Of a stretch of DNA of 43,088 bases, positions 3,897-29,182 are shown piece after piece (within the stretch, counting starts at the first letter, position 1; each line of letters starts with the position of its first letter). The stretch lies in assembly GCA_011524805.1 (NCBI GenBank), contig WTJO01000113.1, positions 2,497 to 45,584 on the forward strand. Reading direction: 5' to 3'. Both the position numbers and the translations under genes were made by a program. The notes under the pieces were generated by a model, which did not search any database, had not been told where the DNA came from, and saw only the letters and a program-made list of their open reading frames with translations. The stretch is from Alphaproteobacteria bacterium. GTDB taxonomy: Bacteria > Pseudomonadota > Alphaproteobacteria > Puniceispirillales > Puniceispirillaceae.

Positions 3897-5726
3897 CTAG
3901 ACAACATCCTTTGCCTTGAAATAGGGCAGATTATCCTGTGCAGAACATCCCATCACTGTCAGCCGCTCAACAATCTGAAGGGCACGCTGATATTTGCGTT
4001 CCAGCTCTTCTTCGGACGTTTCTTCAAACAGCTCACCACATAGTAATATGCCGTGATTTGACTGAAGGGCACGAACCCGCCTGCCATGCATTAGCCCGTC
4101 CACCAGAATCGCATGCTGGAATTCATCAGATTTTACAATCTGGATTTTTTCCTTCACCAGATAATGCCGGATTGCCGCCTCGCCCTGCAAGGTATGCGCC
4201 CAGAATTCTGAGTCAGAACTGGAAGGCTGGCCACTTACCAGCTCAAAGGCTTTACAAAAAGCAAGGAAAATAAGCTCGTCTTTTTCTGCGCCTGTCCATG
4301 CAGTTCTGCCAAGGGTGCGCCAGATATCCTTATTCATCTCGTCAAAGACGGCCGGAATACGCTCAAAGAACAGACGGTGAAGCCCGATATCATTTACAGA
4401 ATCTTCCATTCTCTGTTCTTTATGAATATCGATAGCGCTATAGGAGCCACAGACAGGACAGCCAGAATCAGAAAACTTATCTTTAAGATAGATATGAGAG
4501 CATCTCAGCCCCGACTCCAGCTTGTTGTCACATAGATAATAGCTGGTCTGCTCGTCAATCGGCTGTTGTGCTATCCATTCAAACCTGTTTTTGAATCTCA
4601 GATATGAGCCACGATGAGACCACAGGCTCCATTGCAGTTTTTCAACAGGCCCGAAGGTTGACCAGTTTGAGCTGACATCGATTACAACACAGCTATCTTT
4701 ATGTTCGGCAGCGCGCAATCCGCGCCCTACAGACTGACCCCATAACACTTTGGAGAGGGTCGGTCGCATATGCACAATAATATTACAATGCGGATTATCC
4801 CAGCCTTCGGCCAGTACACCAACAGATACCACCGCCTCAACCTTGCCTTCTGCATGGCTAGACAGCATCTGCATACGCTCTTTGATAGGTGTTGTAGCAG
4901 TAATAAGGCAGACAGAAATTCCCAACTCTTCTATTGCCTCGACCGTGGTTTCTGCAACTGTTACATCAGGGCAAAACCATGCCGAGATAGGGGCGGGCTT
5001 TACCTGCTCTCTTTCTTCAAGATAGATGGAACAGGCATGGCTTATCATGGAAGATTTGATAATCGCAGGTGCCAGCTTGGCAACAGGGAAATCACCTGAG
5101 CTAATATCAATCGTGTTCAGCTCAAGATCATGGATAAAATGTGGGCGATAGCGTGGTCTGACCAGAATACCTTCATCAAACAGCTTATCCATATCTGCGC
5201 CGTCAATAATCGCATCAAAGGCAAGGCTAAGCTGGTCACGCTGATCTGCGGTGCGGCGTTCTGGCGAGGCTGTCAGCCCTAGCAGATGGGCATCATCACG
5301 CCCCTTTTCGCTGAAACATTCCAAAATGCGCTTATAGCCTGTGCCATTTGGTGACACGCGATGCGCTTCATCAATAATGATGAGCTTGGCCTGTTCGACA
5401 GCTTCATCCAGAATATCTCTGGCTCTGGTAGACGTAGATAGAAGCACATCATAATTTGCAAAGGCAGGGTCTGAATGATTTAGCTCAAGCTTTTTGACCC
5501 GATGCTCTTTGGCAAGCGCCCGTTCAAGCTGTTCAAGCAGAACCAGCCTGTGACATAACACGATGACCTTTTCACCTTCATAAAATTGTTTGATGATTTC
5601 GCTGGCCAGAACTGTTTTGCCTGCCCCTGTTGGCGCCTTTACAATGAACCGGCGATGCAGGTTCAGAATACTCGGAAATTCGTCAATAATTTCCTGTTGC
5701 CAACGTCTAAGTTTAATTGAGGTCAT
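3897..5726 (-). CDS. superfamily-2 DEAH-box helicase with a post-core Cys4 zinc-ribbon-like element and a ~230-aa uncharacterised C-terminal region (RadD/YejH-like architecture)
   Basis: LRRWQQEII (Q-like), motif I APTGAGKT, motif II IIDEAHRV, motif III LTASP, motif VI QSVGRGLR. These are followed by C-x10-C...CPVCG. ATG start at 5726. Confidence 0.8.
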   Translation of the reverse strand: MTSIKLRRWQQEIIDEFPSILNLHRRFIVKAPTGAGKTVLASEIIKQFYEGEKVIVLCHRLVLLEQLERALAKEHRVKKLELNHSDPAFANYDVLLSTSTRARDILDEAVEQAKLIIIDEAHRVSPNGTGYKRILECFSEKGRDDAHLLGLTASPERRTADQRDQLSLAFDAIIDGADMDKLFDEGILVRPRYRPHFIHDLELNTIDISSGDFPVAKLAPAIIKSSMISHACSIYLEEREQVKPAPISAWFCPDVTVAETTVEAIEELGISVCLITATTPIKERMQMLSSHAEGKVEAVVSVGVLAEGWDNPHCNIIVHMRPTLSKVLWGQSVGRGLRAAEHKDSCVVIDVSSNWSTFGPVEKLQWSLWSHRGSYLRFKNRFEWIAQQPIDEQTSYYLCDNKLESGLRCSHIYLKDKFSDSGCPVCGSYSAIDIHKEQRMEDSVNDIGLHRLFFERIPAVFDEMNKDIWRTLGRTAWTGAEKDELIFLAFCKAFELVSGQPSSSDSEFWAHTLQGEAAIRHYLVKEKIQIVKSDEFQHAILVDGLMHGRRVRALQSNHGILLCGELFEETSEEELERKYQRALQIVERLTVMGCSAQDNLPYFKAKDVV

Positions 5727-5866: not shown

Positions 5867-6871
5867 CTAAAGAAGCGAATATATTGTCTCGATGAGGGCA
5901 GTATTAATCTGGCGTGGCCCTGTATCTAGCCTGTTTTTATGACGGCGCTCACCTGCCAGCCTGATTCCGTCCAGCCCCTTCATCTCGGTAAAAAAGCCTG
6001 CAACATGCGCTTTCCAGTCACCTGACGAGATTAGTTCGGGGCTGATAGCAATCACCAGCTCTCCTCCTTTGGCAGGGCCGCCATCATTATTATCCTCTCT
6101 GCCAGCCTCAACAGAAAAATTATCCCCTGTCACACCGGCACATAATAATTCTACCATGGTGGCAATGGCTGAGCCTTTATAGCCACCAAATGGCAGCAAT
6201 ACCCCCTTCAATACCTCATTTGGGTCTGTTGAGGGATTGCCAGCCGCATCAAGGCCAGTATCTGCTGGCAGTTCATGGCCGTCTCTGGCGGCAATCTGCA
6301 CATCTCCTTTTGCCAGCCGCGAGGTCGCCATATCAAACACATAAGGTGATGACCCCGGATTAGGAAAGGCAAAGGAAAGCGGGTTTGTGCCGAAAAAGGC
6401 CTGCTTTGCCCCGAACGGCGCAACAGAGGGTTTGAAGGCTGTACAGGCAAGCCCCACCAGCCCCTGTTCGGCAAGATATTCTGTTTCAGGCCATAAGGCG
6501 GCAAAGTGAAAGCTGTTCACAATGCTCATCACCGCGATACCTGTTTTGTGGGCAGCCTCGGCCAGCTGTGGCAGGCCAGCCTGCAATGCCAGCGGCGCAT
6601 AGCCCATCTGGCCATCCACCTTCAGCACAGATGGCAATGTCTGCGCGATCTTGGGATTAGCATCTGCTGTTACCTTGCCAGATTTAATTGAACCTACATA
6701 GCCCGGAATCCTGAACAGCCCGTGAGAGGTTGACCCGTCCCGTTCCGCCCGCATCACCGTATCTGCGATAGCCGCCGCATTGGCCTCATCACATCCGGCC
6801 GCACGCATCACCTTATGGGCAAGCTTGTAAATTTCATCTAGCGACATATCTGTCAAATTCTGAACACTCAT
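5867..6871 (-). CDS. Ldh2-family (malate/L-lactate dehydrogenase type 2) NAD(P)H-dependent oxidoreductase
   Basis: GSTSHGLFRIPGYV and overall similarity to the Ldh_2 family (AllD, ComC, DpkA, YiaK relatives). ATG with AAGAGAGAAAG upstream. Confidence 0.85.
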   Translation of the reverse strand: MSVQNLTDMSLDEIYKLAHKVMRAAGCDEANAAAIADTVMRAERDGSTSHGLFRIPGYVGSIKSGKVTADANPKIAQTLPSVLKVDGQMGYAPLALQAGLPQLAEAAHKTGIAVMSIVNSFHFAALWPETEYLAEQGLVGLACTAFKPSVAPFGAKQAFFGTNPLSFAFPNPGSSPYVFDMATSRLAKGDVQIAARDGHELPADTGLDAAGNPSTDPNEVLKGVLLPFGGYKGSAIATMVELLCAGVTGDNFSVEAGREDNNDGGPAKGGELVIAISPELISSGDWKAHVAGFFTEMKGLDGIRLAGERRHKNRLDTGPRQINTALIETIYSLL

Positions 6872-6908
6872 ATCTTTCTCTCTTACCTATCTGTTATGCT
6901 GTGCCAAT

Positions 6909-6928
6909 ATATTTTACCGGTAAAATAT
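6909..6928. promoter_or_regulatory. perfect 20-bp palindrome ATATTTTACCGGTAAAATAT upstream of the Ldh2-family gene (candidate operator)
   Basis: Ten of ten arm positions are complementary, checked base by base. It lies 38-57 nt upstream of the ATG at 6871 and contains a TAAAAT -10-like hexamer on the coding strand. Confidence 0.4.
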
Positions 6929-7005
6929 TTTTTATATTTCTCATGCTGGGCTATCTTTGGGGCGCTGTCCATAGGCTGGTGCAGAAATATAAGCTACGCT
7001 AGCTT

Positions 7006-7680
7006 TCAGTCATTATCTGTCAGACCTGCGCCTGCACCTGACAACCGTGACGCATCGCTCTCGGGCACGTAAGAGCGGAATGCAAATTCTGATAGACGCG
7101 CCCAGCCTGTATCATCAATGTCTACAGCACCTGTTTCGGTCACCAGCTTCTGCTGGCCGCCGGCTTTCATCTCAATCCGGTATTCTGTGATATTGCTCTG
7201 CTCACCACTGGCAGGCATCGCTATCAGCATCTCATCAGCGTGCATCTGGCACGCATCAAAAGACAGCGTTATCTGCCCGTGATGCTGGCTTTCTGTCCAG
7301 ATAAGCTGGCCAAGCAGGATAGAAGGCATATAGGCGGTAGTCAGAATGACTATATGCGGCTCGGCACCCCCGTCAGATGAGATGGCAAGCCAGTCACATA
7401 TCATCGCTCCAAATACCAGCATTTCATGCGGGGCGGCGGTTAGCCGTAATTCTGTGCCGTCTATTGTGATGCGCTGGCTATCTGCTGGCACGGGGCGCGC
7501 CGAATCATATGCCTGATAGTGCGCAAGATACGCTGCAAGCTGGGTGGCGGCGCGTGGCTGGTGGTGGCTGGCAATGACCATTGCCCAGCCTGTATCATCT
7601 GCAACATCATGGCTGAACCCGCATCCAAGCAGAGCTTTGCGCGTCATATGAAACAGCTCGTTCAGCGAACAGCGTATCAT
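7006..7680 (-). CDS. uncharacterised 224-aa protein (resembles the DUF3726 family from memory; unverified)
   Basis: Uninterrupted ORF with an ATG at 7680 overlapping the upstream stop (ATGA). N-terminal SLNELFHMTRKALLGCG and C-terminal SGAGAGLTDND. No catalytic motif recognised. Confidence 0.7.
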   Translation of the reverse strand: MIRCSLNELFHMTRKALLGCGFSHDVADDTGWAMVIASHHQPRAATQLAAYLAHYQAYDSARPVPADSQRITIDGTELRLTAAPHEMLVFGAMICDWLAISSDGGAEPHIVILTTAYMPSILLGQLIWTESQHHGQITLSFDACQMHADEMLIAMPASGEQSNITEYRIEMKAGGQQKLVTETGAVDIDDTGWARLSEFAFRSYVPESDASRLSGAGAGLTDND

Positions 7681-9407
7681 TCTGGCTCCGTGATATGCCC
7701 CTGCGGTGGTGGCGGGCTAGTCGCGAACAGCCAGTCATCATCACAGCCTGCAGCAATATCAGCAGGTATCGGTGCCCCCTGGAACAGCGTTACACGTGTC
7801 CATCTATCTGATTTCGGATCGAATTTGCTGGCACCAAAAAACGATAATTTACATCGCAGTAAATCAATCGGCCGACAGCTATCTGCCACCAGATTATCCC
7901 TAATCTCGCCATAGGCAAAGCGCGATACTGTCTGGATACGCCTGATGATATGGCGGTTATGCGGATAGGCCAGCATGAAATGGGCAAGGCGCATGTCGCC
8001 ATCTACAGCCCGCATATCGGCGCGCAATTGCCGGATATAGCGCACAATATGAAATGGCATTTCCTTATCTGCGCCTTCTTCTTCAAACCGCAAGCCAAGG
8101 CGCGGTTCCAGCTTTTCTGCAGATACATACCAGAATTGTGCTTCATGTTCCGGCATCGACAGATCAATATCACATGCCCAGCGATAGTCACGTTCAACCA
8201 GTTCGGCCAGTTCGGACACGCGCATAGATGTATCCAGCCTTGGCTCAAAATCGTTTGACAGGCAATGGGACAGGCCATCTACCTCATCAGCGCATATCTC
8301 AATCAGCAATGAGACCATCAACTCCTGCATATCTTCTGAACAGCCAGAAATGCGCTGAAAGGCATCTTCTAGCGGATAGCGTTCTGCAAGTGGCGTTTTG
8401 TTTAGTCCGGCCAGAAAATCGTCAAATTCGGTGCGCAATATTCCGGTGCGGCGTGTTTGATCCTCATCCTCTACCTGCCATTCTGACAAATGTATTTTTG
8501 TACGCCTCAGAAGATCAGCAAAAATCTGATGTTGTGTGTCTGTTAATGTTTCTTGTGTACGGCATCTCATCAGGGCTGTTTCACGGACAATCATCCAGCT
8601 ATGCACAAGACAGGGGTGATTCACCAAAAATGGCGCCATACCAAGCCCTGTCGAATTGCCAATCCCAAGATAGCGCCGATAGCCAGCATCAAGCGCTACC
8701 GCCTGAGCAGATTGCTGGGTGGCACACCATTCAGCCAGCAGAACAGAATATTCCCGAATCATAAATACAGCCAGCATTTCAATCTGGAACGGCGGTTGAA
8801 ACACATCATGGCCAGCTATTACGCTTCTATCGGCGATACCGAATTTGCCATTGCCATACACCGCAGTGGTGCGCATCAGATAACCTGTGTTGACCAGCAT
8901 TTCATGATCTGGCTGTCTGCCATCGGCAAGCGCCTGAACCACATGGGCAAATAGTCTGACAGATTTATTTGCGCGTGACAGACACAAAATCCTGTCATGA
9001 TATCTACCTGCTTCCTGAGTTGATACATGACCTGCCAGCCTGTCAATCTCCTGCTGGTCGGGCACACCGTCAAACAGACAGAAGCTTGCATCCCATTTAG
9101 TAGCGATCACCCTGTCGGTGCGATCTTCTGCATCAAGGGCACGGCTATAGGCAATAAGCGATATATCCATACCGCCAATCTGGATGGTCAGCACCATATG
9201 CCCATAGCCATCTTTATCTAGCGACTGGCTGGAAATACGTAATTCAGACCGTTCGGCGCATAATCTGCGCATCAGGATACGCATAAAACTTAATCTGTGC
9301 GGAAAAAATGACCCCAGACGTGACAGCCGCATAACCTGCCCGGCTGGCCGAATAGATATAGCCTGTTCGGCGGCTTGCTGGGCGGGTTGTGGTGTAGTGA
9401 TTGTCAT
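7677..9407 (-). CDS. uncharacterised 576-aa soluble protein, no recognisable domain
   Basis: Long uninterrupted ORF. The ATG at 9407 has GAGAGACG upstream, 31 nt after the M19-like gene stop. Its stop overlaps the next start. No P-loop, Rossmann motif, Cys cluster, signal peptide or TM segment seen. Confidence 0.8.
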   Translation of the reverse strand: MTITTPQPAQQAAEQAISIRPAGQVMRLSRLGSFFPHRLSFMRILMRRLCAERSELRISSQSLDKDGYGHMVLTIQIGGMDISLIAYSRALDAEDRTDRVIATKWDASFCLFDGVPDQQEIDRLAGHVSTQEAGRYHDRILCLSRANKSVRLFAHVVQALADGRQPDHEMLVNTGYLMRTTAVYGNGKFGIADRSVIAGHDVFQPPFQIEMLAVFMIREYSVLLAEWCATQQSAQAVALDAGYRRYLGIGNSTGLGMAPFLVNHPCLVHSWMIVRETALMRCRTQETLTDTQHQIFADLLRRTKIHLSEWQVEDEDQTRRTGILRTEFDDFLAGLNKTPLAERYPLEDAFQRISGCSEDMQELMVSLLIEICADEVDGLSHCLSNDFEPRLDTSMRVSELAELVERDYRWACDIDLSMPEHEAQFWYVSAEKLEPRLGLRFEEEGADKEMPFHIVRYIRQLRADMRAVDGDMRLAHFMLAYPHNRHIIRRIQTVSRFAYGEIRDNLVADSCRPIDLLRCKLSFFGASKFDPKSDRWTRVTLFQGAPIPADIAAGCDDDWLFATSPPPPQGHITEPE

Positions 9408-9438: not shown

Positions 9439-10434
9439 TCAGGATTTTACCGCAGGCGTGAAATTATGCTCATAAAAACGCAGCCAGTTCAGCCCCATCA
9501 GCCCATTTATCTCATCCTTTGAAAACCCGATATCTGCCAGTCCGGCACCAATATTGGGAAAATCGCGGATAGACCGGAACCAGTCCGGCTGTTCAGGAAA
9601 GCCCGGATTATCAGCGCTTCCTTCGCCAAAATCAAGCTGGCGTGACCAGCGGCCATTGCGCATCCATTCGACCACCTTGTCAGGCTGGTCTGTGCATAAA
9701 TCAGAGCCTATGCCCAGATTTTCTGCCCCATAGCGGCTTGCCGCCTCTGCTATCATCTCGCAGAAACTGGCCAATGTGCAGTCAGACCCTGATTTAAGAT
9801 GATGCGGATATAAAGAGAAGCCCAGCATGCCGCCTCTATCTGTAAGAGCGCGCAATACCGCATCTGATTTATTGCGCCGTGCCGGATGCCACCAGTCAGG
9901 ATTAGCATGGGTGATAGTAATTGGCCGGCTAGATACATCTATTGCTTCCAGAGTCGAACGTTCGGCAGAATGGCTCATATCTATCACCAGCCCCACCCTG
10001 TTCATCTCTGCTACGGCCTGAACACCAAATCTGGTCAGCCCTGTATCATCCTCTTCATAACATCCTGTTGCCAGCAGAGACTGGTTATTATAGGTCAGCT
10101 GCATAAAGCGCGCGCCAAGCTGATAGACAATTTCAATCAGGCCAATATCATCTTCAATCGGCGCACAATTCTGAAAGCCGTAGAAAATTGCTGTCCTGCC
10201 AGTCTCTGCGGCTATTCTTACATCATTGGCTGTCCTGCCATGCATCAGCCTGTCAGGGTGGGCTTCGATATGACGGTTCCAGCTAATCATATTTTCAACT
10301 GTCTGGCGGAAATTTTCATGATAGCAGATGGTTACATGAACCGCACTTAATCCGGCTTCTGCCATTTCATCAAACAGGGCAGGGCTGTAATTTGCATATT
10401 GCAGATTATCAATCAGAATAGGTTTTTCTGTCAT
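9439..10434 (-). CDS. M19 (renal/membrane dipeptidase) family amidohydrolase-fold protein with a degenerate alpha-metal site
   Basis: VYQLGARFMQLTYNNQ, VIDMSHS, ITHAN...RRN and GIGSD align to DPEP1-type blocks. The ORF-track start at 10437 is GTG. The ATG at 10434 follows GAGGCGG. Confidence 0.8.
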   Translation of the reverse strand: MTEKPILIDNLQYANYSPALFDEMAEAGLSAVHVTICYHENFRQTVENMISWNRHIEAHPDRLMHGRTANDVRIAAETGRTAIFYGFQNCAPIEDDIGLIEIVYQLGARFMQLTYNNQSLLATGCYEEDDTGLTRFGVQAVAEMNRVGLVIDMSHSAERSTLEAIDVSSRPITITHANPDWWHPARRNKSDAVLRALTDRGGMLGFSLYPHHLKSGSDCTLASFCEMIAEAASRYGAENLGIGSDLCTDQPDKVVEWMRNGRWSRQLDFGEGSADNPGFPEQPDWFRSIRDFPNIGAGLADIGFSKDEINGLMGLNWLRFYEHNFTPAVKS

Positions 10435-10441
10435 CACCGCC

Positions 10442-11746
10442 TCATTTTATGCCATTACTGCAATAGGTCTCTAGCCAGCCAGCCGCCGATATAACGCTAG
10501 CATCACTGGCTGGCGCACCCACCAGCTGGATACCTAGCGGCAACCCGTCAGGCCCGTTCAGATCAACACCCCCCAGATGCGGCAAGCTAAGGGCTGGCAA
10601 ACCGCACAGGCTGGTGAATTTTGAGCAGGCAGGATTGCCGGTGCCATCTTCAAATAAGGGTGCCTGACCGGTAGCAGACGCCAGCATAAGCATCTTGCCG
10701 CCAGACAACAAAGCTGAAAATCTGTCGATGCCATGCTGTCTGACAGTCATCGCGCTGGCATAATCAGCTTCTGACACCTGCGCACCACGGGCGACTGTCA
10801 GAGCCGTAAATTCGCTCACCTCTGTCTGTTTTCCGGCAATCAGCGGGCCGATATTCTGGGCATATTCATAATCATAAATCACGCTATGTGCCTGCTGTAA
10901 TTCATCTAGAAAGGCACGTAAATCAATTTGCTCTGCATGCCCGCCCAGACGGCTGGCAAGCTGTGAGACGCGTTCGGCCATATAGCCTTCAATATCATCA
11001 GCAAACATCCCATCTACCCATAGAAAATGCGGGCGGGCTGTAGCGCTGTGGTGACAGGCAGCCTCAAGACCAGCATTATCTATCATCACCACATCCCCAA
11101 GGCGGGCAATATCGACAAGATGGCGCGCAAATATGCCGATATGATCTAGCGTCTGGCTGGTCTGCAACACAGCTGTGCGCGAAATCGCCTCAAAGCTGGG
11201 CTTGAAGCCATATACACCGCAATAGGCCGCAGGGCGGATAACAGACCCGCCTGTTTGCGAGCCAATCGCCAGCGCGACCTGACCTGCGGCAACCGCCGCC
11301 GCAGAGCCCGATGATGACCCGCCCGGTGAAAACCGGCTATTATGCGGATTACGTGTTTCACATCTCTGCAGATAGGCAAATTCGGTTGTCCGTGTCTTGC
11401 CCATAATCAGCGCCCCTGCGGCGCGCAACCTCTGTACCAGCTCAGCATCTGTCTGTGGCTGCCTGCCTGCAAATAAGGACGAGCCAAGACAGCAGGGCAT
11501 ATCCACACTATCAATAATATCTTTTAGCCCCACGGGCACCCCGCTAAGCGGCAGGCCAGCCTCAATCTTGCCAGCCTGTGCCAGAGCAGCGTCCGGATCA
11601 TGCCACGCCCATGCATCTATGGCAGAATCTGTTCTGTCGATAGTCGCAAGATGTTCGGCACATATCTGTTTCGGTGTCAGCCTGTCTTCTGAGACAGCCT
11701 GTGCTAAGTCAACTGCGCTATCTATCATACCGTTACCATGCCTCAC
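10442..11746 (-). CDS. amidase-signature (AS) family amidase
   Basis: GGSSSGSAAAVAAGQVALAIGSQTGGSVIRPAAYCGVYGFKPS is the canonical AS block, with the upstream KD catalytic Lys region (GLKDIID). The start is either GTG at 11746 or ATG at 11728. Confidence 0.9.
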   Translation of the reverse strand: MRHGNGMIDSAVDLAQAVSEDRLTPKQICAEHLATIDRTDSAIDAWAWHDPDAALAQAGKIEAGLPLSGVPVGLKDIIDSVDMPCCLGSSLFAGRQPQTDAELVQRLRAAGALIMGKTRTTEFAYLQRCETRNPHNSRFSPGGSSSGSAAAVAAGQVALAIGSQTGGSVIRPAAYCGVYGFKPSFEAISRTAVLQTSQTLDHIGIFARHLVDIARLGDVVMIDNAGLEAACHHSATARPHFLWVDGMFADDIEGYMAERVSQLASRLGGHAEQIDLRAFLDELQQAHSVIYDYEYAQNIGPLIAGKQTEVSEFTALTVARGAQVSEADYASAMTVRQHGIDRFSALLSGGKMLMLASATGQAPLFEDGTGNPACSKFTSLCGLPALSLPHLGGVDLNGPDGLPLGIQLVGAPASDASVISAAGWLETYCSNGIK

Positions 11747-11766: not shown

Positions 11767-12876
11767 TTAGAAATTCACAACAGAGCGGATAGATTCTCCC
11801 TGATGCATCAGATCAAATCCCTTATTAATTTCGTCAAGCGAAAGGCTATGGGTAATCATCGGGTCAATTTCGATTTTGCCATCAAGATACCAGTCGACAA
11901 TTTTTGGCACATCTGTTCTGCCTCTTGCACCACCAAAGGCAGTGCCACGCCATGAGCGGCCTGTAACCAGTTGGAAAGGACGTGTGGAGATTTCCTGACC
12001 TGCGCCCGCTACTCCGATAATAATTGATTCGCCCCAGCCCTTATGCGCACATTCAAGTGCGGTGCGCATCACCTCGACATTGCCGATACATTCGAAGGAG
12101 TAATCAGCCCCGCCGCCTGTAAGCTCAACAAGATGGGCTGTCAGATCGCCAGATATATCTGCGGGATTGACAAAATCGGTCATGCCAAACCGCCTGCCCC
12201 ATTCTGCCTTGTCAGGATTCATATCCACCCCGACAATCTGCGATGCGCCAATCATCCGCAGCCCTTGGATCACATTAAGGCCAATACCACCAAGGCCGAA
12301 TACAACCGCATGGCAACCGGGCTCAGCGTTGGCTGTATTGATAACAGCCCCGATACCTGTTGTAACGCCGCAGCCAATATAGCAAATCTTGTCAAAGGGC
12401 GCCGCCTTATTCACCTTGGCAAGCGCTATTTCAGGCAATACCGTGAAATTGGAAAAGGTAGAGGTGCCCATATAGTGATGCACTGGCTTGCCTTCAAATG
12501 AAAATCTGGAGGTACCATCTGGCATCAGCCCCTGACCTTGGGTTGTGCGTATGGCCTGACATAAATTGGTTTTCGGATGCAGACAATAATCACATTCGCG
12601 GCATTCAGGCGTATAGAGCGGAATCACATGATCGCCCTCGGCAACAGAGGTTACACCAGCACCAATCTCGCGCACAATACCGGCACCTTCATGGCCAAGA
12701 ATCGCCGGAAACAGCCCTTCTGGGTCAGCGCCTGAAAGGGTAAATTCATCTGTGTGGCAAATCCCTGTCGCCTTAATCTCAACCAGTACTTCGCCAGCTT
12801 TCGGGCCTTCCAGATCAACTTCGACAATTTCCAGAGGACGTCCGGCTTCAAGCGCAATTGCAGCACGTGATTTCAT
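11767..12876 (-). CDS. adhC: S-(hydroxymethyl)glutathione dehydrogenase / class III alcohol dehydrogenase
   Basis: [68 protein letters not shown] is near-canonical for FrmA/AdhC. The ATG at 12876 has GGGAGAG upstream. The ORF-track start at 12912 is TTG. Confidence 0.95.
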
Positions 12877-12912
12877 GATTTCTCTCCCATATCTGCCCAA
12901 TCTATATCTCAA

Positions 12913-18950: not shown

Positions 18951-20228
18951 CTATTGCGCAAAGCGCGCCTGCCATTTTTGTTCTATCAATGTCATCCAGT
19001 CAGGGTGAGGCTCTGCAAGCGCAGGAGATAATTCAGCCTCTGACAGGCTGGCAACGCCGCGCGGCAGGGCATTGAATTGCTGCTTTTGCTGGTCATTAAA
19101 TTTGGCAAATGACAGCACCGTAGGATCTCCCCAAATCTCGGAATTGGCCTTTCTTAGCTGGGCATCAAATGACAGCAGGAAATCTGCAACCAGCATCGCG
19201 CCTTCTGGCGCCGAGGCATTAAAGGGGATAGCCACAAAATGGATATTGGCAAGCGTGCCCTGTTCATGAATATAGCTTCGCACCGTATCAGGCAGAATCT
19301 GCTGCGAGATCGCATTTGAAAATTCCGCCGGATTGAAGGCAAAGGCGATTGTGACCTCGCCATCACCAAGCAGGCGCACCATCTCGGTATAATTGGCCGG
19401 ATAGGTTTTACCGCCACGCCACAAAGACGGAGTGACCTCGTCAAGCCAGTCAAATAGTGGTGCCAGATGCTGATCAGCATCATCTGAAGGAGGTGTCTGG
19501 AAGCGCGCAATATCGTCAGTTGTTTCAAGCAAAATCTGTTTCAGGAAGCTCGAGCCTGTAAAATCAGGCGGACGTGGATAGCTGAACCGCCCCGGATTTG
19601 CCTTGATCCAGTCTTTTAACGCAGCGGCCGAACGCGGAGGCGATGCCAGATAGGCGCTATCATATCCAAATACAAGCTGAGCCCGTCCCCATGGCGATTC
19701 ACGCCCTTCTGTCGGCAGAGCAAAATCTGTAACCAGCCCGGGCAGTGCTTCAGGGTCTGTAAGCTCAAAAGCAGGCAAATCAAATGCCCATTCATCTGTG
19801 CGCAGCAGCCCTTCACGGCTAAGGGTGGCAAAATTCTCACCATTCACCCAGATCAGATCGACAGACCCGCCTGCTGTTTTGCCAGCTACTTTTTCTGCCA
19901 GAATACGTGATACTGCCTCGGCTGTATCTGTCAGTTTCACATGTTCCAGCGTAATGCCATAACGTGCCTTTACCTGTTCTGCCACCCAGCCAATATAGCT
20001 GTTAATATTGGGACTGCCGCCCCATGCATTGAAATAGACGGTCTGGCCTTTGGCGGCCTGTTCCATCTGCTGGGCTGTGCTGGCTGTGGCGACAGAACTC
20101 CACCCTGTCAGACCGCCTAGCAGACCGGCGAGCATCCATAAAATAGCCAGTGCTGTTCTGCCAGCCTGTTGTGTTCTCTGCCATAGATTTATAGCAGGTG
20201 CCAGCCGCAAAAAAGTGAATGCATTCAT
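18951..20228 (-). CDS. periplasmic ABC transporter substrate-binding protein (YnjB-like)
   Basis: Signal-like N-terminus (ALAILWMLAGLLGGLTGWSSVATA). VYFNAWGGSPNINSYIGW block. The ATG at 20228 is preceded by GAAGGAGAG. The ORF-track start at 20399 adds 57 implausible residues. Confidence 0.8.
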   Translation of the reverse strand: MNAFTFLRLAPAINLWQRTQQAGRTALAILWMLAGLLGGLTGWSSVATASTAQQMEQAAKGQTVYFNAWGGSPNINSYIGWVAEQVKARYGITLEHVKLTDTAEAVSRILAEKVAGKTAGGSVDLIWVNGENFATLSREGLLRTDEWAFDLPAFELTDPEALPGLVTDFALPTEGRESPWGRAQLVFGYDSAYLASPPRSAAALKDWIKANPGRFSYPRPPDFTGSSFLKQILLETTDDIARFQTPPSDDADQHLAPLFDWLDEVTPSLWRGGKTYPANYTEMVRLLGDGEVTIAFAFNPAEFSNAISQQILPDTVRSYIHEQGTLANIHFVAIPFNASAPEGAMLVADFLLSFDAQLRKANSEIWGDPTVLSFAKFNDQQKQQFNALPRGVASLSEAELSPALAEPHPDWMTLIEQKWQARFAQ

Positions 20229-20402
20229 GATAAATCTCTCCTTCAAACGAGCCATGATGGCATTAATGATAGCTCTAGCATAGGACTTATTTCTTAATAT
20301 AGTGTTAATGCTTTGAATTATGGAAGACGGTAATCTGCACTTGTAAAACAGGCCAAAGATGCGCATAAGCAAACAGGGCATATTGCAACAGAAAGGCATA
20401 TC

Positions 20403-25684: not shown

Positions 25685-28600
25685 CTATGCGTTCTTTGTC
25701 TGCGCCTGCTTTGCAGGGGGTGTAAACTGGGTCATCAGCCTGTCCAGCGTTTCGTCTGCGCGCGCAAAACTTGCCTCTCTTACCGGGCCGAAGCCGCGAA
25801 TATCCTGTGCAATATCTGCTATCTGGACAGCCAGTTCGTAATTATTGTCATTCAGACCGGCACATAGCTCATTCAGGATATTCTGATAGCGATCGCGCCA
25901 GCGACGTTCGCGCTGTCGTTCGGCTGTATAGCCAAACAGATCAAACATACTGCCCCTGAGCCCTTTCATCTTTGCCAGCACACTCATCACCCCTGCCATC
26001 CAGCTGCCATATTCGCGTTTTAACGGCCTGCCTGTGCGCGGGTCTGTTTTTGAGAATATCGGCGGGGCAAGATGAAAGCGAAGTGAAATATCGCCGTCAA
26101 ACTGGTGCGTAAGCTGTTGTGTGAAGGTTCCATCTGTAAAAAGCCTGGCTACTTCATATTCATCTTTTATGGCCATCAGCTTATACAGCCCTTTTGCAGC
26201 GGCAATGGTAAGACGCTCAGCCTTATCATGATCACATCTCTGGACATTCTGCATGATAGCGCGATAGCTATCTGCATATTCTGTATCCTGATAGGCCACC
26301 AGCCTGTCAAATCTGTCATTGATTATCGCGTTGGCAGAAAGCGGCTGAGCCGGCATAACAGGCTGCTGTGTCTGCTGTGCCAGCCTGTCAGGGTCGGCAA
26401 CATATAGTCTGCCCCATCTGAAAGCCTGTAGGCTCTGTGCAACCGCCACATTATTCAGCTCAATCGCTTTTTCAATTGCCTCTGACCTGAGCGGTATCAG
26501 GCCTTTCTGGAACGCCACCCCCAGCATAATGAGGTTTGATGCAATTGCATCGCCTATCAGCCCCAGGGCAAGCTGGGTAGCATCACAGAAGCTCGCATTT
26601 CCGTCTTTAACACTATGCGACAATCTGGAGATAATCTGTTCTGCGGGAAATTGCTGATCAGGGTCGCGGGTAAATTCGCCTGTCGGCATCTGGTTCAGAT
26701 TGGCAATAATGTGGCCGTCCGGATTCATCAGCTTTAGCTGATATTGTTCAGCCCCGACCAGACTGTCACATCCCAGCATCAGATCAGCCCCGCCCGGACC
26801 AATCCGGATAGCGCTAATATCTTCAGCATTGGGGCCTATGCGGATATGGCTGGTAACTGCACCGCCCTTTTGTGCCAGCCCTGCCATATCGATAATGCCG
26901 CACCCTTTTTTGTCAATATGGGCGGCCATGCCAAGCAAGGCGCCAATCGTCACAACCCCTGTGCCCCCGACCCCTGTCAGCAGGATGCTATGCACCTTAT
27001 CTTCAGGAATTATCTGCTCTGGTTCGACAATTGCAATATCTGATGACAGTCCGACAGGTTCAGGCTTTGCCAATGTGCCACCCGAAACAGTCACAAAGCT
27101 TGGGCAGAAGCCATTCACACAGGAAAAATCCTTGTTACAGGCAGACTGGTCAATCTGGCGTTTGCGCCCAAGCGCTGTTTCAAGAGGCAAGATCGCAACA
27201 CAGTTGGACTGCACCCCGCAATCACCGCACCCTTCGCAGACTTCGGGATTGATGATAACGCGTTTATCAGGGTCTTCCATCAGCCCTCTTTTGCGGCGGC
27301 GGCGCTTTTCGGTAGCACAGGTCTGGTCGTAAATCAGCGCTGTTGTGCCAGCTATTTTTGCCAGTTCGGCCTGTACGCGCTGTAATTCCAGCCTGTGATG
27401 AAAAGTGGTTTCGGCAGGATAATCTGACCTGTTATGCCGGCTCAGATCATCTGTTACCAGTGCCAGACGCTCAATATTCGATGCAGACAGCAGATGGGCG
27501 ATTTGAGGCGGGGTCAGATCACCTTCATGAGTCTGACCGCCGGTCATTGCAACTGCATCATTATATAAAATCTTGTAGGTGATATTCACACCTGAGGCGA
27601 CAGCCGCTCGGATAGCCATCAGTCCTGAATGGTTAAAGGTGCCATCACCCATATTCTGGAAGACATGGTCTCTGCTGGAAAAACAGGCCTCGCCTATCCA
27701 GTTTGCACCCTCGCCACCCATATGGGTATTGCCTTCTACAGACCTGTCCATAAATTGCGCCATCCAGTGACAGCCAATCCCTGCATAGCCGCGTGCGCCG
27801 TCTGGCAGAACGGTCGAGCTATTATGCGGACACCCCGCACAGAAATAGGGTGTCCGTGCCAGCCCCACAGAAGCAAATTCACGGCACTGGGACGCACGCA
27901 AATGCTCTGCACGTGCAGATATATCTGTGGGTATCTTCTGGCCTGCCAGCAAATGATCAATCATGGCCAGCGCTACCTGCACCCCGTCAATTGAGCCTTC
28001 TTCAGGCAATAGCCGTTCGCCATCTGCATCCTTTTTGCCCAGAATAAGCGGACGGGCTGGCAGATTATACAGGATCGATTTAATCTGTTCTTCCATCAGT
28101 CCGCGCTTTTCCTCGACCACAAATAGCCGCTCAAGCGGGCGGGCAAAAGCAGTCAGGCCGGACGGCTCAACAGGCCAGCTCATCCCGACCTTATATAGCG
28201 CCAGCCCCATCTTGTCTGCCTGCGCACCAGAGATGCCCAGATCAGAAAGTGCCTGCAATACATCCATATAGGCCTTGCCAGTTGCCACAATACCGAATCT
28301 TGCTTTTTTGCCGCCTGAATAAATCACTCTGTCAATCTGGTTGGCACGCACATAGCCATGGGCGGCGGCTATCTTATGCTTGTGAAGACGTTCTTCCTGA
28401 CTATGGCGATGATCATTACGTCTGATATTGAGCCCGCCTTCGGGCAAATCGACATCATTTGGCAATTTTGATGAAAATTGTTCCAGACTTAACCGCGCAG
28501 AAGACGAGCTTTCAATATTGTCCTTCACACATTTAAGCCCAACCCACAGACCCGAATAGCGTGACATCGCCCAGCCATGCAGGCCAAATTGCACCATCTC

Positions 28601-29182
28601 TTCGAGATTAACAGGATTCAGCACAGGGATCATCACATCCATCATGGCATATTCTGACTGGTGACATACGGTCGAGCTTTCGCCTGTATGATCATCTCCC
28701 ATCAAGGCCAGCACCCCACCCTTGGGGTCGGTGCCTGCCAGATTGGCATGCCTGAAGACATCCCCTGTGCGGTCGACACCGGGGCCTTTGCCATACCAGA
28801 TAGCAAATACGCCATCATGGGTATTCTCGCCATGCAATGCCGCCTGCTGGGTGCCCCATACGGCGGTCGCGGCAAGATCTTCATTCAAAGCAGGGGTGAA
28901 AACAATCTGGCTATCTGTAAGCGGAGCTGATGCCTGTGCAAATTGCAAATCGATCCCGCCCAGAGGCGAGCCTCTATAGCCGGTGACATAACCTGCGCTA
29001 TTTATACCATGCTGGCGGTCAATTTCTGACTGCATCAGACACATTCTGACCAGTGCCTGTGTGCCATTTACAAACACAACATCTGTATCAAGATTATATT
29101 TGTCAGCAAGACTTACCGCATTCAGCCTGTCACCTGCCAGCCTGTCAGCTATCTCTTTCGAATTATCCTGCGAACCATCCAT
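25685..29182 (-). CDS. indolepyruvate:ferredoxin oxidoreductase family protein (fused alpha/beta, 2-oxoacid:ferredoxin oxidoreductase)
   Basis: 1165 aa. ThDP-binding regions, a ferredoxin-like CEGCGDCGVQSNC cluster and a C-terminal IorB-like domain. Confidence 0.9.
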   Translation of the reverse strand: MDGSQDNSKEIADRLAGDRLNAVSLADKYNLDTDVVFVNGTQALVRMCLMQSEIDRQHGINSAGYVTGYRGSPLGGIDLQFAQASAPLTDSQIVFTPALNEDLAATAVWGTQQAALHGENTHDGVFAIWYGKGPGVDRTGDVFRHANLAGTDPKGGVLALMGDDHTGESSTVCHQSEYAMMDVMIPVLNPVNLEEMVQFGLHGWAMSRYSGLWVGLKCVKDNIESSSSARLSLEQFSSKLPNDVDLPEGGLNIRRNDHRHSQEERLHKHKIAAAHGYVRANQIDRVIYSGGKKARFGIVATGKAYMDVLQALSDLGISGAQADKMGLALYKVGMSWPVEPSGLTAFARPLERLFVVEEKRGLMEEQIKSILYNLPARPLILGKKDADGERLLPEEGSIDGVQVALAMIDHLLAGQKIPTDISARAEHLRASQCREFASVGLARTPYFCAGCPHNSSTVLPDGARGYAGIGCHWMAQFMDRSVEGNTHMGGEGANWIGEACFSSRDHVFQNMGDGTFNHSGLMAIRAAVASGVNITYKILYNDAVAMTGGQTHEGDLTPPQIAHLLSASNIERLALVTDDLSRHNRSDYPAETTFHHRLELQRVQAELAKIAGTTALIYDQTCATEKRRRRKRGLMEDPDKRVIINPEVCEGCGDCGVQSNCVAILPLETALGRKRQIDQSACNKDFSCVNGFCPSFVTVSGGTLAKPEPVGLSSDIAIVEPEQIIPEDKVHSILLTGVGGTGVVTIGALLGMAAHIDKKGCGIIDMAGLAQKGGAVTSHIRIGPNAEDISAIRIGPGGADLMLGCDSLVGAEQYQLKLMNPDGHIIANLNQMPTGEFTRDPDQQFPAEQIISRLSHSVKDGNASFCDATQLALGLIGDAIASNLIMLGVAFQKGLIPLRSEAIEKAIELNNVAVAQSLQAFRWGRLYVADPDRLAQQTQQPVMPAQPLSANAIINDRFDRLVAYQDTEYADSYRAIMQNVQRCDHDKAERLTIAAAKGLYKLMAIKDEYEVARLFTDGTFTQQLTHQFDGDISLRFHLAPPIFSKTDPRTGRPLKREYGSWMAGVMSVLAKMKGLRGSMFDLFGYTAERQRERRWRDRYQNILNELCAGLNDNNYELAVQIADIAQDIRGFGPVREASFARADETLDRLMTQFTPPAKQAQTKNA

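Follow-up and report, generated by a model that had tools for sequence, protein, structure and literature searches.

A widespread two-protein family pair encoded beside an M19-like gene in a Puniceispirillaceae genome, possibly part of a catabolic enzyme for betaine-like or N-methylated compounds

The 43,088-nucleotide stretch analyzed here (the window; positions 2,497 to 45,584 of the forward strand of contig WTJO01000113.1, assembly GCA_011524805.1, Puniceispirillaceae) carries two adjoining minus-strand genes for proteins of 576 and 224 amino acids (aa), which we call Big and Small. A first-pass annotation, made from the sequence alone, had described two minus-strand open reading frames (ORFs) with an ATGA overlap, beginning 31 nt after the ORF of an M19-like protein, and both the coordinates and the sequence bear this out. 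The junction of the two genes reads CCAGAATGATACGC, with the sequence GGAG lying 7 nt 5' of the ATG of Small, and the N-terminal SLNELFHMTRKALLGCG and C-terminal SGAGAGLTDND that had been quoted for Small are present in the translation. The two genes and their immediate neighbors are as follows.

7677..9407, minus strand: Big (576 aa), ATG start, member of an unannotated family
7006..7680, minus strand: Small (224 aa), ATG start, judged a divergent DUF3726 protein
7677..7680, minus strand: ATGA stop/start overlap, in which the TGA of Big overlaps the ATG of Small
7009..7050, minus strand: codons for the near-invariant C-terminal tail of Small, SRLSGAGAGLTDND
9439..10437, minus strand: M19-like, PA5396-type protein of the amidohydrolase fold (PF01244, E=1.3e-72)
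5867..6871, minus strand: full-length Ldh_2-family oxidoreductase (PF02615, E=1.6e-92)
10442..11746, minus strand: amidase-signature enzyme (PF01425, E=5.3e-65)
11767..12912, minus strand: S-(hydroxymethyl)glutathione dehydrogenase, a class III zinc-dependent alcohol dehydrogenase (ADH; TIGR02818 equivalog)

The string ADH, amidase, M19-like gene, Big and Small has intergenic gaps of 20, 4, 31 and -4 nt, and 134 nt separate Small from the Ldh_2 gene downstream. The ADH matches TIGR02818 of NCBIfam at the equivalog level, with 616.6 bits against a cut-off of 543.95. In promoter and terminator scans meant to bound the operon, terminators were predicted at chance level. Indexes of public assemblies list the identical 576-aa protein in 181 blocks, which include contigs longer than 1 Mb from metagenomes of reefs and lagoons, and the gene order is the same in every case. 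Gene order is also unchanged in an 88%-identical relative, and the window is syntenic with metagenome-assembled genomes (MAGs) of SAR116/Puniceispirillaceae (L002-L004), which points to a marine alphaproteobacterium of the SAR116 type.

Big represents a very large family. A word-indexed search yielded at least 8000 clusters at 90% identity, with every listed candidate significant, and an exhaustive search of 50%-identity representatives returned 1674 clusters at E<=1e-3, 547 of them at E<=1e-30. A Big locus was confirmed in at least 585 species-representative genomes, from marine as well as soil bacteria. Most of the hosts are marine Alphaproteobacteria (SAR116, Rhodobacteraceae, Rhizobiaceae and other Hyphomicrobiales), and further members come from Vibrio, Pseudomonas, Porticoccaceae, Caballeronia, Roseateles, Acidimicrobiales and Poribacteria. 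Wherever a source names the protein, the label is 'hypothetical protein'. The size of the family, its invariant alignment columns and the identical copies in public assemblies establish that Big and Small are real genes and not chance ORFs.

The first-pass annotation could place no motif in Big, and database searches agree: Pfam and NCBIfam return zero families, sequence and profile searches of the Protein Data Bank (PDB) return no match, and no family of defined function was hit. When 41 members of the family alignment were scanned against Pfam at E<=5, only scattered noise without a recurrent match was obtained. An AlphaFold2 model built from 41 homologs is of good predicted quality (predicted local distance difference test score, pLDDT, 84.4; predicted template modeling score, pTM, 0.87), and a Foldseek search of the PDB with this model found nothing at E<=0.001, the TM-scores lying between 0.05 and 0.13. 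The 41-sequence alignment contains more than 100 invariant columns. Across 110 sequences with 27-49% identity, which include a distant paralog from Sinorhizobium meliloti, 29 positions are at least 95% conserved, the polar and aromatic ones being S40, R145, S149, R151, Q165, Y176, R179, R218, N251, W271, E276, W410, W426 and R518. Cys and His are absent from the positions conserved across the superfamily, which speaks against a metal or Fe-S site. These comparisons and the model point to an unannotated family with a new fold and with conservation of the kind seen in enzymes. Two other assignments of Big were considered and rejected. The near-Walker sequence AVYGNGKF lacks the S/T of a P-loop and its lysine, K188, is not conserved across the superfamily, which speaks against a P-loop NTPase; and weak Foldseek matches to protein-kinase-like folds (TM-score ~0.1, root-mean-square deviation, rmsd, ~20 A, probability 0.02) are noise.

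To examine the surroundings of the family, we analyzed 80 genome loci chosen only for containing Big, of which 77 offered enough sequence and 50 had at least 6 kb on both flanks. Small lies on the same strand no more than 150 nt 3' of Big in 74 of the 77 loci, and it is present in all 50 long-flank loci. In 43 of 70 loci the spacing equals the 4-nt overlap of the window, and in 61 of 70 it is no more than 25 nt. Conversely, each DUF3726 gene that was looked up, including those of L081, L088, L090 and L091, is preceded by a gene for a protein of 550-572 aa without a Pfam match. Big and Small are thus an obligate pair. In dozens of lineages or clusters, moreover, Big and DUF3726 are fused into one polypeptide of ~770-815 aa, an example from Mesorhizobium being annotated in RefSeq as 'DUF3726 domain-containing protein'. 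The model of a fusion protein has a pLDDT of 85.6 and a pTM of 0.88 with a disordered 22-residue linker between the domains; the high pTM despite this linker implies a defined interface. Big and Small therefore probably form a complex, and the natural fusions back the multi-subunit enzyme that the first-pass annotation had proposed. The C-terminal tail of the fusion model (residues 798-809) is predicted to be disordered (pLDDT<50), and so is docked on neither domain.

Small had been suggested to resemble DUF3726. Its match to the Pfam DUF3726 model (PF12525) aligns residues 5-53 with profile positions 2-50 and scores 13.7 bits (E=0.057), below the gathering score of 22.1 bits; the Pfam field is empty also for its closest relatives (P0121-P0127). 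In phmmer searches, proteins that do bear PF12525 matched Small over 98-100% of the query at 25-31% identity (E=9.4e-11 for P0128, 8e-9 for P0129 and 1.5e-6 for P0131). The alignment of these proteins (A2) reveals a common N-terminal SxNE..RKA..GxG motif and a near-invariant C-terminal SRLSGAGAGLxDND that ends exactly at the carboxy-terminus, and D-N-D are the last residues in ~60 of 71 neighborhood copies of Small. Outside the tail, only A16, G21, L52 and D96 are invariant. Because the homology runs end to end and extends to the tail, the suggested relationship holds despite the sub-threshold Pfam score, and we judge Small to be a divergent DUF3726 member or a sister subfamily. The two share length, the N-terminal motif, the SRxxGAGAGLxDND terminus and the position after Big. 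The Pfam model itself spans only ~73 N-terminal residues and is silent on function, on the Big partner and on any wider kinship.

Such a kinship, with the Ldh_2 dehydrogenase fold, is supported by three independent lines. The top Foldseek matches of the Big-DUF3726 fusion model are all Ldh_2 enzymes (1vbi, 1x0a, DpkA 1wtj, AllD 1xrh and 4fjs, YiaK 1s20 and ComC 2x06), which superimpose over ~150 residues with an rmsd of ~4 A and probabilities of 0.84-1.0, at E-values that are weak (best 0.026). Profile comparison with hhalign connects Small to the C-terminal domain of long fusions of 850-960 aa (98%, E=2e-13) and this domain to Ldh_2 (80.5%, E=1e-5, 139 columns), whereas Small compared directly with Ldh_2 reaches only 35%, over its N-terminal 40 residues. 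One long fusion displays weak DUF3726 and Ldh_2 Pfam matches side by side. The long fusions (P0230-P0296, 820-960 aa) form a distant subfamily in which Big is joined to a longer, more complete Ldh_2-like domain, and many of them end in ...LRPGExxDPLKxF rather than GAGAGLxDND. The Ldh_2 family (PF02615) comprises type-2 malate/lactate dehydrogenases, the imine reductase DpkA, AllD, ComC and YiaK. Relative to these, Small covers about half of the fold, without the NAD(P)H-binding half; it has an invariant tail in addition and is obligately paired with a protein whose fold is unrelated. It has no Pfam Ldh_2 match and lacks the complete two-domain fold of ~330-340 aa. The catalytic SHG motif (...RDG..SHG) is conserved neither in Small nor in the long fusions. 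DUF3726 is thus probably a truncated Ldh_2-like domain devoid of the catalytic motif, and Small looks catalytically dead because SHG is not retained and only four residues outside the tail are invariant.

The same kinship admits a different view of the pair, namely that Big and Small constitute an atypical NAD(P)-dependent N-alkyl-amino-acid dehydrogenase (for secondary or tertiary amines) with Ldh_2-like chemistry, in which DUF3726 supplies part of an Ldh_2-type site that Big completes, and the M19-like protein hydrolyzes the resulting imine or iminium to an aldehyde for an aldehyde dehydrogenase (ALDH). Ldh_2 enzymes do include imine reductases and N-methyl-amino-acid dehydrogenases, as the DpkA match illustrates; the long fusions carry the fuller domain; M19 proteins of the PA5396 type also stand beside amine-oxidizing flavoenzymes (DgcAB, and an FAD oxidoreductase in Azospirillum); and RidA and ALDH genes recur nearby. 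Against this, Small spans only ~150 of the ~340 Ldh_2 residues with neither the SHG motif nor many invariant residues outside the tail, and no nucleotide-binding motif is found in either protein. A complete Ldh_2 gene is, furthermore, often found next door, which makes a second, crippled Ldh_2 an unlikely catalyst. We regard a dehydrogenase of this type, and with it the shared active site, as doubtful.

The most constant neighbor of the pair is the M19-like gene. An M19 homolog lies on the same strand in 41 of the 50 long-flank loci, almost always immediately 5' of Big, and together with the recurrent 4-nt overlap this upholds the earlier proposal that the pair is translationally coupled and functionally linked to this gene. 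The window protein matches PF01244 over profile positions 30-317 of 319. Its nearest PDB entry is 2I5G (E=2e-59), a 325-aa 'amidohydrolase' that we take to be a Pseudomonas aeruginosa protein and whose length fits that of PA5396 (978 nt). The canonical binuclear zinc site of the family, which consists of an N-terminal HxD, a bridging Glu, two His and a catalytic Asp, is not complete in the M19-like protein. The HxD motif is replaced (IDNLQY in the window, with L12 and Y14 at least 97% conserved), and the bridging Glu is exchanged for Gln89 ('GFQN' versus 'GIEG' of GliJ). The DxSH, xxH and GSD motifs are retained (H156, H177, D246), and H34, H40 (H40/E41), C126, H212, H213, C220 and C248 are newly invariant in this subtype. 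The active site is remodeled but strongly constrained, and a dipeptidase role is not likely. Since the alpha-zinc ligands are missing, the dipeptidase or amide-hydrolase activity presumed by the first-pass annotation cannot be assumed.

Given this unusual site, Big and Small could instead be an accessory, maturation or activation factor for the remodeled hydrolase, acting in metal delivery, assembly or gating in the manner of urease or hydrogenase accessory proteins. The constancy of the M19 gene fits such a role. The replaced alpha-metal ligands and the new invariant His and Cys residues make a cofactor site that needs help conceivable, and the disordered acidic tail could reach the mouth of the M19 barrel. 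The same M19 subtype, however, occurs without Big and Small in dgc operons, and conversely the pair occurs without a nearby M19 gene in nine of the 50 loci and in L081. Big is also larger and more conserved than typical accessory factors and contains neither GTPase/ATPase nor metal-binding motifs. A maturation role is accordingly rather improbable in our estimation.

The dgc operon itself deserves comparison, as the first-pass annotation placed DUF3726 next to an M19 homolog in the Pseudomonas dimethylglycine-catabolism locus. In Pseudomonas, this operon comprises PA5396 (a putative dipeptidase), PA5397, dgcA and dgcB (PMC13492115), and in Vibrio the order is pepD_hp_dgcAB_fixAB, where 'hp' is a 177-aa DUF5943 protein (PMC12093977, Table S1). 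Neither paper says what the first two genes do (PMC13492115, PMC12093977). A Ralstonia megaplasmid (L094 7992..15652) carries glyA2, M19, a gene for a 177-aa protein, DgcA-like and DgcB-like genes, and EtfAB. This 177-aa protein matches DUF5943 (E=7e-51) and V4R and shows no similarity to Small (hhalign probability 0.15%). The dgc-type M19 protein, for its part, has the same remodeled site, with 'IIIDGLN' in place of HxD and 'GFQN' at the bridging position. The earlier placement was therefore right about the M19 type and wrong about its partner: the link between the dgc and Big/Small systems is the M19 subtype, not DUF3726. Both systems belong to methylated-amine catabolic loci; the partners in the dgc operon are the DUF5943+V4R protein, the flavo/Fe-S demethylase DgcAB and electron transfer flavoprotein, whereas those in the window are Big and DUF3726, and no gene like DgcA (a flavoprotein of the old yellow enzyme type) or DgcB (Fe-S) is present among the window ORFs scanned. 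In Azospirillum (L095), a gene of the same M19 subtype has a TRAP transporter on one side and, on the other, an FAD oxidoreductase with EutBC. M19 proteins of this subtype seem to accompany amine-oxidizing pathways generally.

Beyond the M19 gene, the pair recurs in an operon controlled by a LysR regulator and composed of ALDH, M19, sometimes a BCCT transporter, Big, DUF3726 and sometimes an Ldh-family oxidoreductase. This operon type was found on a plasmid of Pseudomonas sp. MPC6, in Phaeobacter inhibens DSM 17395 and P66, Mesorhizobium, Aminobacter aminovorans, Vibrio campbellii (chromosome 2), Aliiroseovarius and at several MAG loci. It is flanked by BCCT or OpuAC/ProVWX-type transporters and RidA. 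The surrounding islands contain soxBDAG, DMGDH-like FAD oxidoreductases, a Rieske oxygenase with its reductase (GbcAB/CntAB-like), MttB-family methyltransferases, and MR/MLE epimerases or dmdABCD. An Ldh_2 gene follows Small in 17 of the 77 loci by clustering and in 10 of the 50 by hidden Markov model, and an 'Ldh family oxidoreductase' is annotated near the pair in Aminobacter, Mesorhizobium, Phaeobacter and Aliiroseovarius. The ALDHs match models of alpha-ketoglutarate-semialdehyde (2,5-dioxovalerate) dehydrogenase (KGSADH) best. The scores are far below the equivalog cut-offs, so that no substrate can be assigned from the ALDH subtype, and we abandoned naming one in this way.

The operon-embedded BCCTs of Vibrio, Phaeobacter and Pseudomonas (L086 7214..8818, L092 8344..9888 and L082 3715..5235) possess a modified aromatic box, with HWGFLAWAI[V/L] in transmembrane helix 4 and WWTVFFWGWF[L/M]GYGP in transmembrane helix 8. 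Vibrio natriegens BCCTs with altered pockets do not take up glycine betaine (PMC12093977). The shared signature suggests a common substrate other than glycine betaine. In the window, the glutathione-dependent formaldehyde dehydrogenase that opens the gene string was taken as support for a catabolic context of onium or methylamine compounds.

The amidase was also considered as a core partner of the pair, which the first-pass annotation had placed within an 'amide-hydrolase operon'. An amidase-signature gene occurs within ~6 genes of Big in only 8 of the 77 loci, and in the position it holds in the window only in the closest relatives (L002-L004, L096-L100). We therefore rejected the amidase as a core component, regarding it as a lineage-specific addition, and the operon framing falls with it. 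Of the four genes that had been expected to co-occur across genomes, M19, Big and Small do recur together, and the amidase does not.

From the observed pairing, fusions, family sizes, fold relationships, remodeled M19 site and genomic contexts, we infer a function for the module, including which subunit is catalytic, what the tail does, the class of substrate and the reaction. Our preferred reading, to which we assign a probability of roughly 45%, is that the three proteins make up a heteromeric catabolic enzyme that carries out one C-N-bond step on an imported onium or N-methylated osmolyte, with Big as the catalytic subunit, Small as a scaffold and the tail as a docking element. Big and Small would be an obligate two-subunit protein, made as a single polypeptide in some lineages, and would join the PA5396-type M19-like protein in a conserved three-gene catabolic module. 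The invariant Arg, Ser, Asn and Glu residues of Big, together with three Trp and one Tyr, would suit a ligand that combines a carboxylate with an onium group. Small, left over from the N-terminal half of an Ldh_2 dehydrogenase and catalytically dead, would support Big structurally, and its flexible acidic GAGAGLxDND tail would dock on a third protein, for which the M19-like subunit is the most plausible candidate. The module would thereby process one C-N bond during the catabolism of a small molecule, betaine-like or N-methylated, that the cell has imported. An aldehyde product could pass to the KGSADH-like ALDH, the Ldh_2 enzyme encoded alongside could receive a 2-oxo or imino acid, and one-carbon (C1) units could go to the products of neighboring sarcosine oxidase or formaldehyde dehydrogenase genes. 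In a bolder form, which we consider unlikely, Big, with its new fold, would cleave a C-N bond of an abundant marine onium osmolyte, or demethylate it, in a cofactor-poor reaction, the osmolyte being taken up by the distinct BCCT subfamily; the tail would be a mobile arm, serving as docking peptide, as lid of the active site or even as covalent carrier, that couples Big to the M19 barrel in a three-component machine.

Several observations weigh against the proposed three-protein enzyme. Neither a cofactor nor a catalytic motif can be assigned to Big, and a literature search yielded no biochemical, genetic or expression data for any member of the module; the search surfaced no characterization specific to it, only papers on the dgc operon. 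No M19 gene lies within 6-8 kb in the nine long-flank loci mentioned above, an ALDH gene is present in only 16 of the 50, and an Ldh_2 gene in only the ten already noted. Many pairs or trios in Rhodobacteraceae sit among the housekeeping genes TruA, YcjX/YcjF and TamAB, without catabolic neighbors. All surroundings are metabolic or housekeeping in character and gave no cause for a defense-system or mobile-element reading. In Litoreibacter and its relatives (L047, L048, L061, L072, L075, L079), the genes ALDH, M19, Big and Small are preceded on the 5' side by genes for a DeoC/LacD-type aldolase, a fucose-isomerase-like protein, a Gfo/Idh/MocA oxidoreductase and an aldose-epimerase-like protein, and in several of these loci a histidinol-dehydrogenase-like gene follows Small; these surroundings, reminiscent of sugar or sulfosugar metabolism, are at odds with a betaine theme. 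On pSymB of S. meliloti (L085 8223..19671), a paralogous trio with 29% identity has the order Big, Small, M19 and is accompanied by IclR, a polyamine-type ABC transporter, an aminotransferase, SSADH and RidA. The S. meliloti Small lacks both the acidic tail and a Pfam match, and since its M19 gene is kept, this paralog weakens the idea that the tail docks on the M19 protein. The contexts as a whole are mixed, ranging from betaine transporters through a polyamine-type transporter and an arginase-family gene to sugar-type genes. A single substrate may therefore not exist, and the variety suggests that different paralogs may take different substrates.

The tail lends itself to another explanation, in which the C-terminal Asp of Small covalently holds the substrate or an intermediate in the manner of LysW or a scaffold peptide, Big acts as a ligase or modifier, and the M19-like protein is the releasing hydrolase. 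The tail is near-invariant, flexible and rich in Gly and Ala, places its acidic residues exactly at the C-terminus and is undocked in the Big-Small model, and a partner with the amide-hydrolase fold is commonly near, with the amidase as a further one in the window. LysW-type amino-group carriers are ~55-aa zinc-finger proteins with a C-terminal Glu and an ATP-grasp ligase as partner. Small, by comparison, has 224 aa and is Ldh_2-like, and no ATP-grasp or P-loop was recognized in Big or its neighbors; adenylation motifs are equally lacking, and K188 of the Walker-like AVYGNGKF is the non-conserved lysine described above. Moreover, carrier chemistry is known from biosynthesis, whereas the context here is catabolic, with transporters and LysR, and distant subfamilies replace or lose the tail. 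We consider a covalent carrier very unlikely.

A multi-subunit hydrolase may offer an analogy for the proposed enzyme. The 5-oxoprolinase PxpABC is a cofactor-poor, multi-subunit hydrolase with a barrel subunit and two accessory subunits. It resembles the module in having three genes, a barrel hydrolase-like subunit with two co-translated partners, and small nitrogen-containing metabolites as the theme. It differs in that there is no sequence or fold relationship and no ATP-binding signature is conserved in Big.

Finally, the pair might be non-catalytic and serve as a ligand sensor or regulator of neighboring catabolic genes or of a transporter. Its co-occurrence with transporters and transcription factors would fit this, as would the equivalent slot in the dgc operon, which is held by a protein with a V4R ligand-binding domain. 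No DNA-binding, kinase or signaling domain, however, is present in either protein, dedicated LysR or IclR regulators are already there, Big is large and dense in invariant polar residues, and the housekeeping contexts described above offer no regulated neighbors. We regard a sensor as highly improbable.

What is new in this system is the protein family, its predicted fold and probably its reaction; the type of system, a LysR-regulated catabolic operon, is ordinary. The hosts include SAR116/Puniceispirillaceae and the Roseobacter group, which dominate the turnover of algal osmolytes (betaines, dimethylsulfoniopropionate and methylamines), by which the marine fluxes of carbon, nitrogen and climate gases are driven. 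A conserved but unannotated enzyme between betaine-type transporters and sarcosine or formaldehyde oxidation would probably mark a gap in these pathways, either a step or a substrate that is missing. If the module were solved, a new fold and probably new chemistry would be defined, and DUF3726 as well as thousands of 'hypothetical protein' entries would gain a function. The PA5396-type M19 proteins, which are equally unexplained in the dimethylglycine operon of Pseudomonas and Vibrio, would be accounted for, and the substrate of the BCCT subfamily with the altered binding pocket would be identified. Because the host is genetically tractable, the S. meliloti trio is a good system for tests of function.

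Four further features of the window lie outside the string of genes around the pair.

3897..5726, minus strand: ResIII/DEAD-type helicase, 609 aa
17102..18817, minus strand: polytopic membrane protein, 571 aa, without a Pfam match
18951..20399, minus strand: SBP_bac_8 solute-binding protein, adjoining the 571-aa membrane protein
25685..29182, minus strand: POR/TPP/DUF6537 protein, 1165 aa, similar to 2-oxoacid:ferredoxin oxidoreductases of the indolepyruvate type

The helicase gene is always found 3' of the Ldh_2 gene in the closest relatives of the window (L002-L004, L096-L100) and is probably unrelated to the module. The 571-aa ORF was examined as a possible paralog of Big and rejected, as hhalign gives a probability of 0.2% and the ORF encodes a polytopic membrane permease; it is probably a fused ABC permease, unrelated to Big. 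Two long-read metagenome assemblies from the same lineage have M19, amidase or Ldh_2 split into two ORFs (L096 2974..3969; L097 1681..2966 and 6537..7536), which most likely reflects frameshift errors at homopolymers and not pseudogenes.

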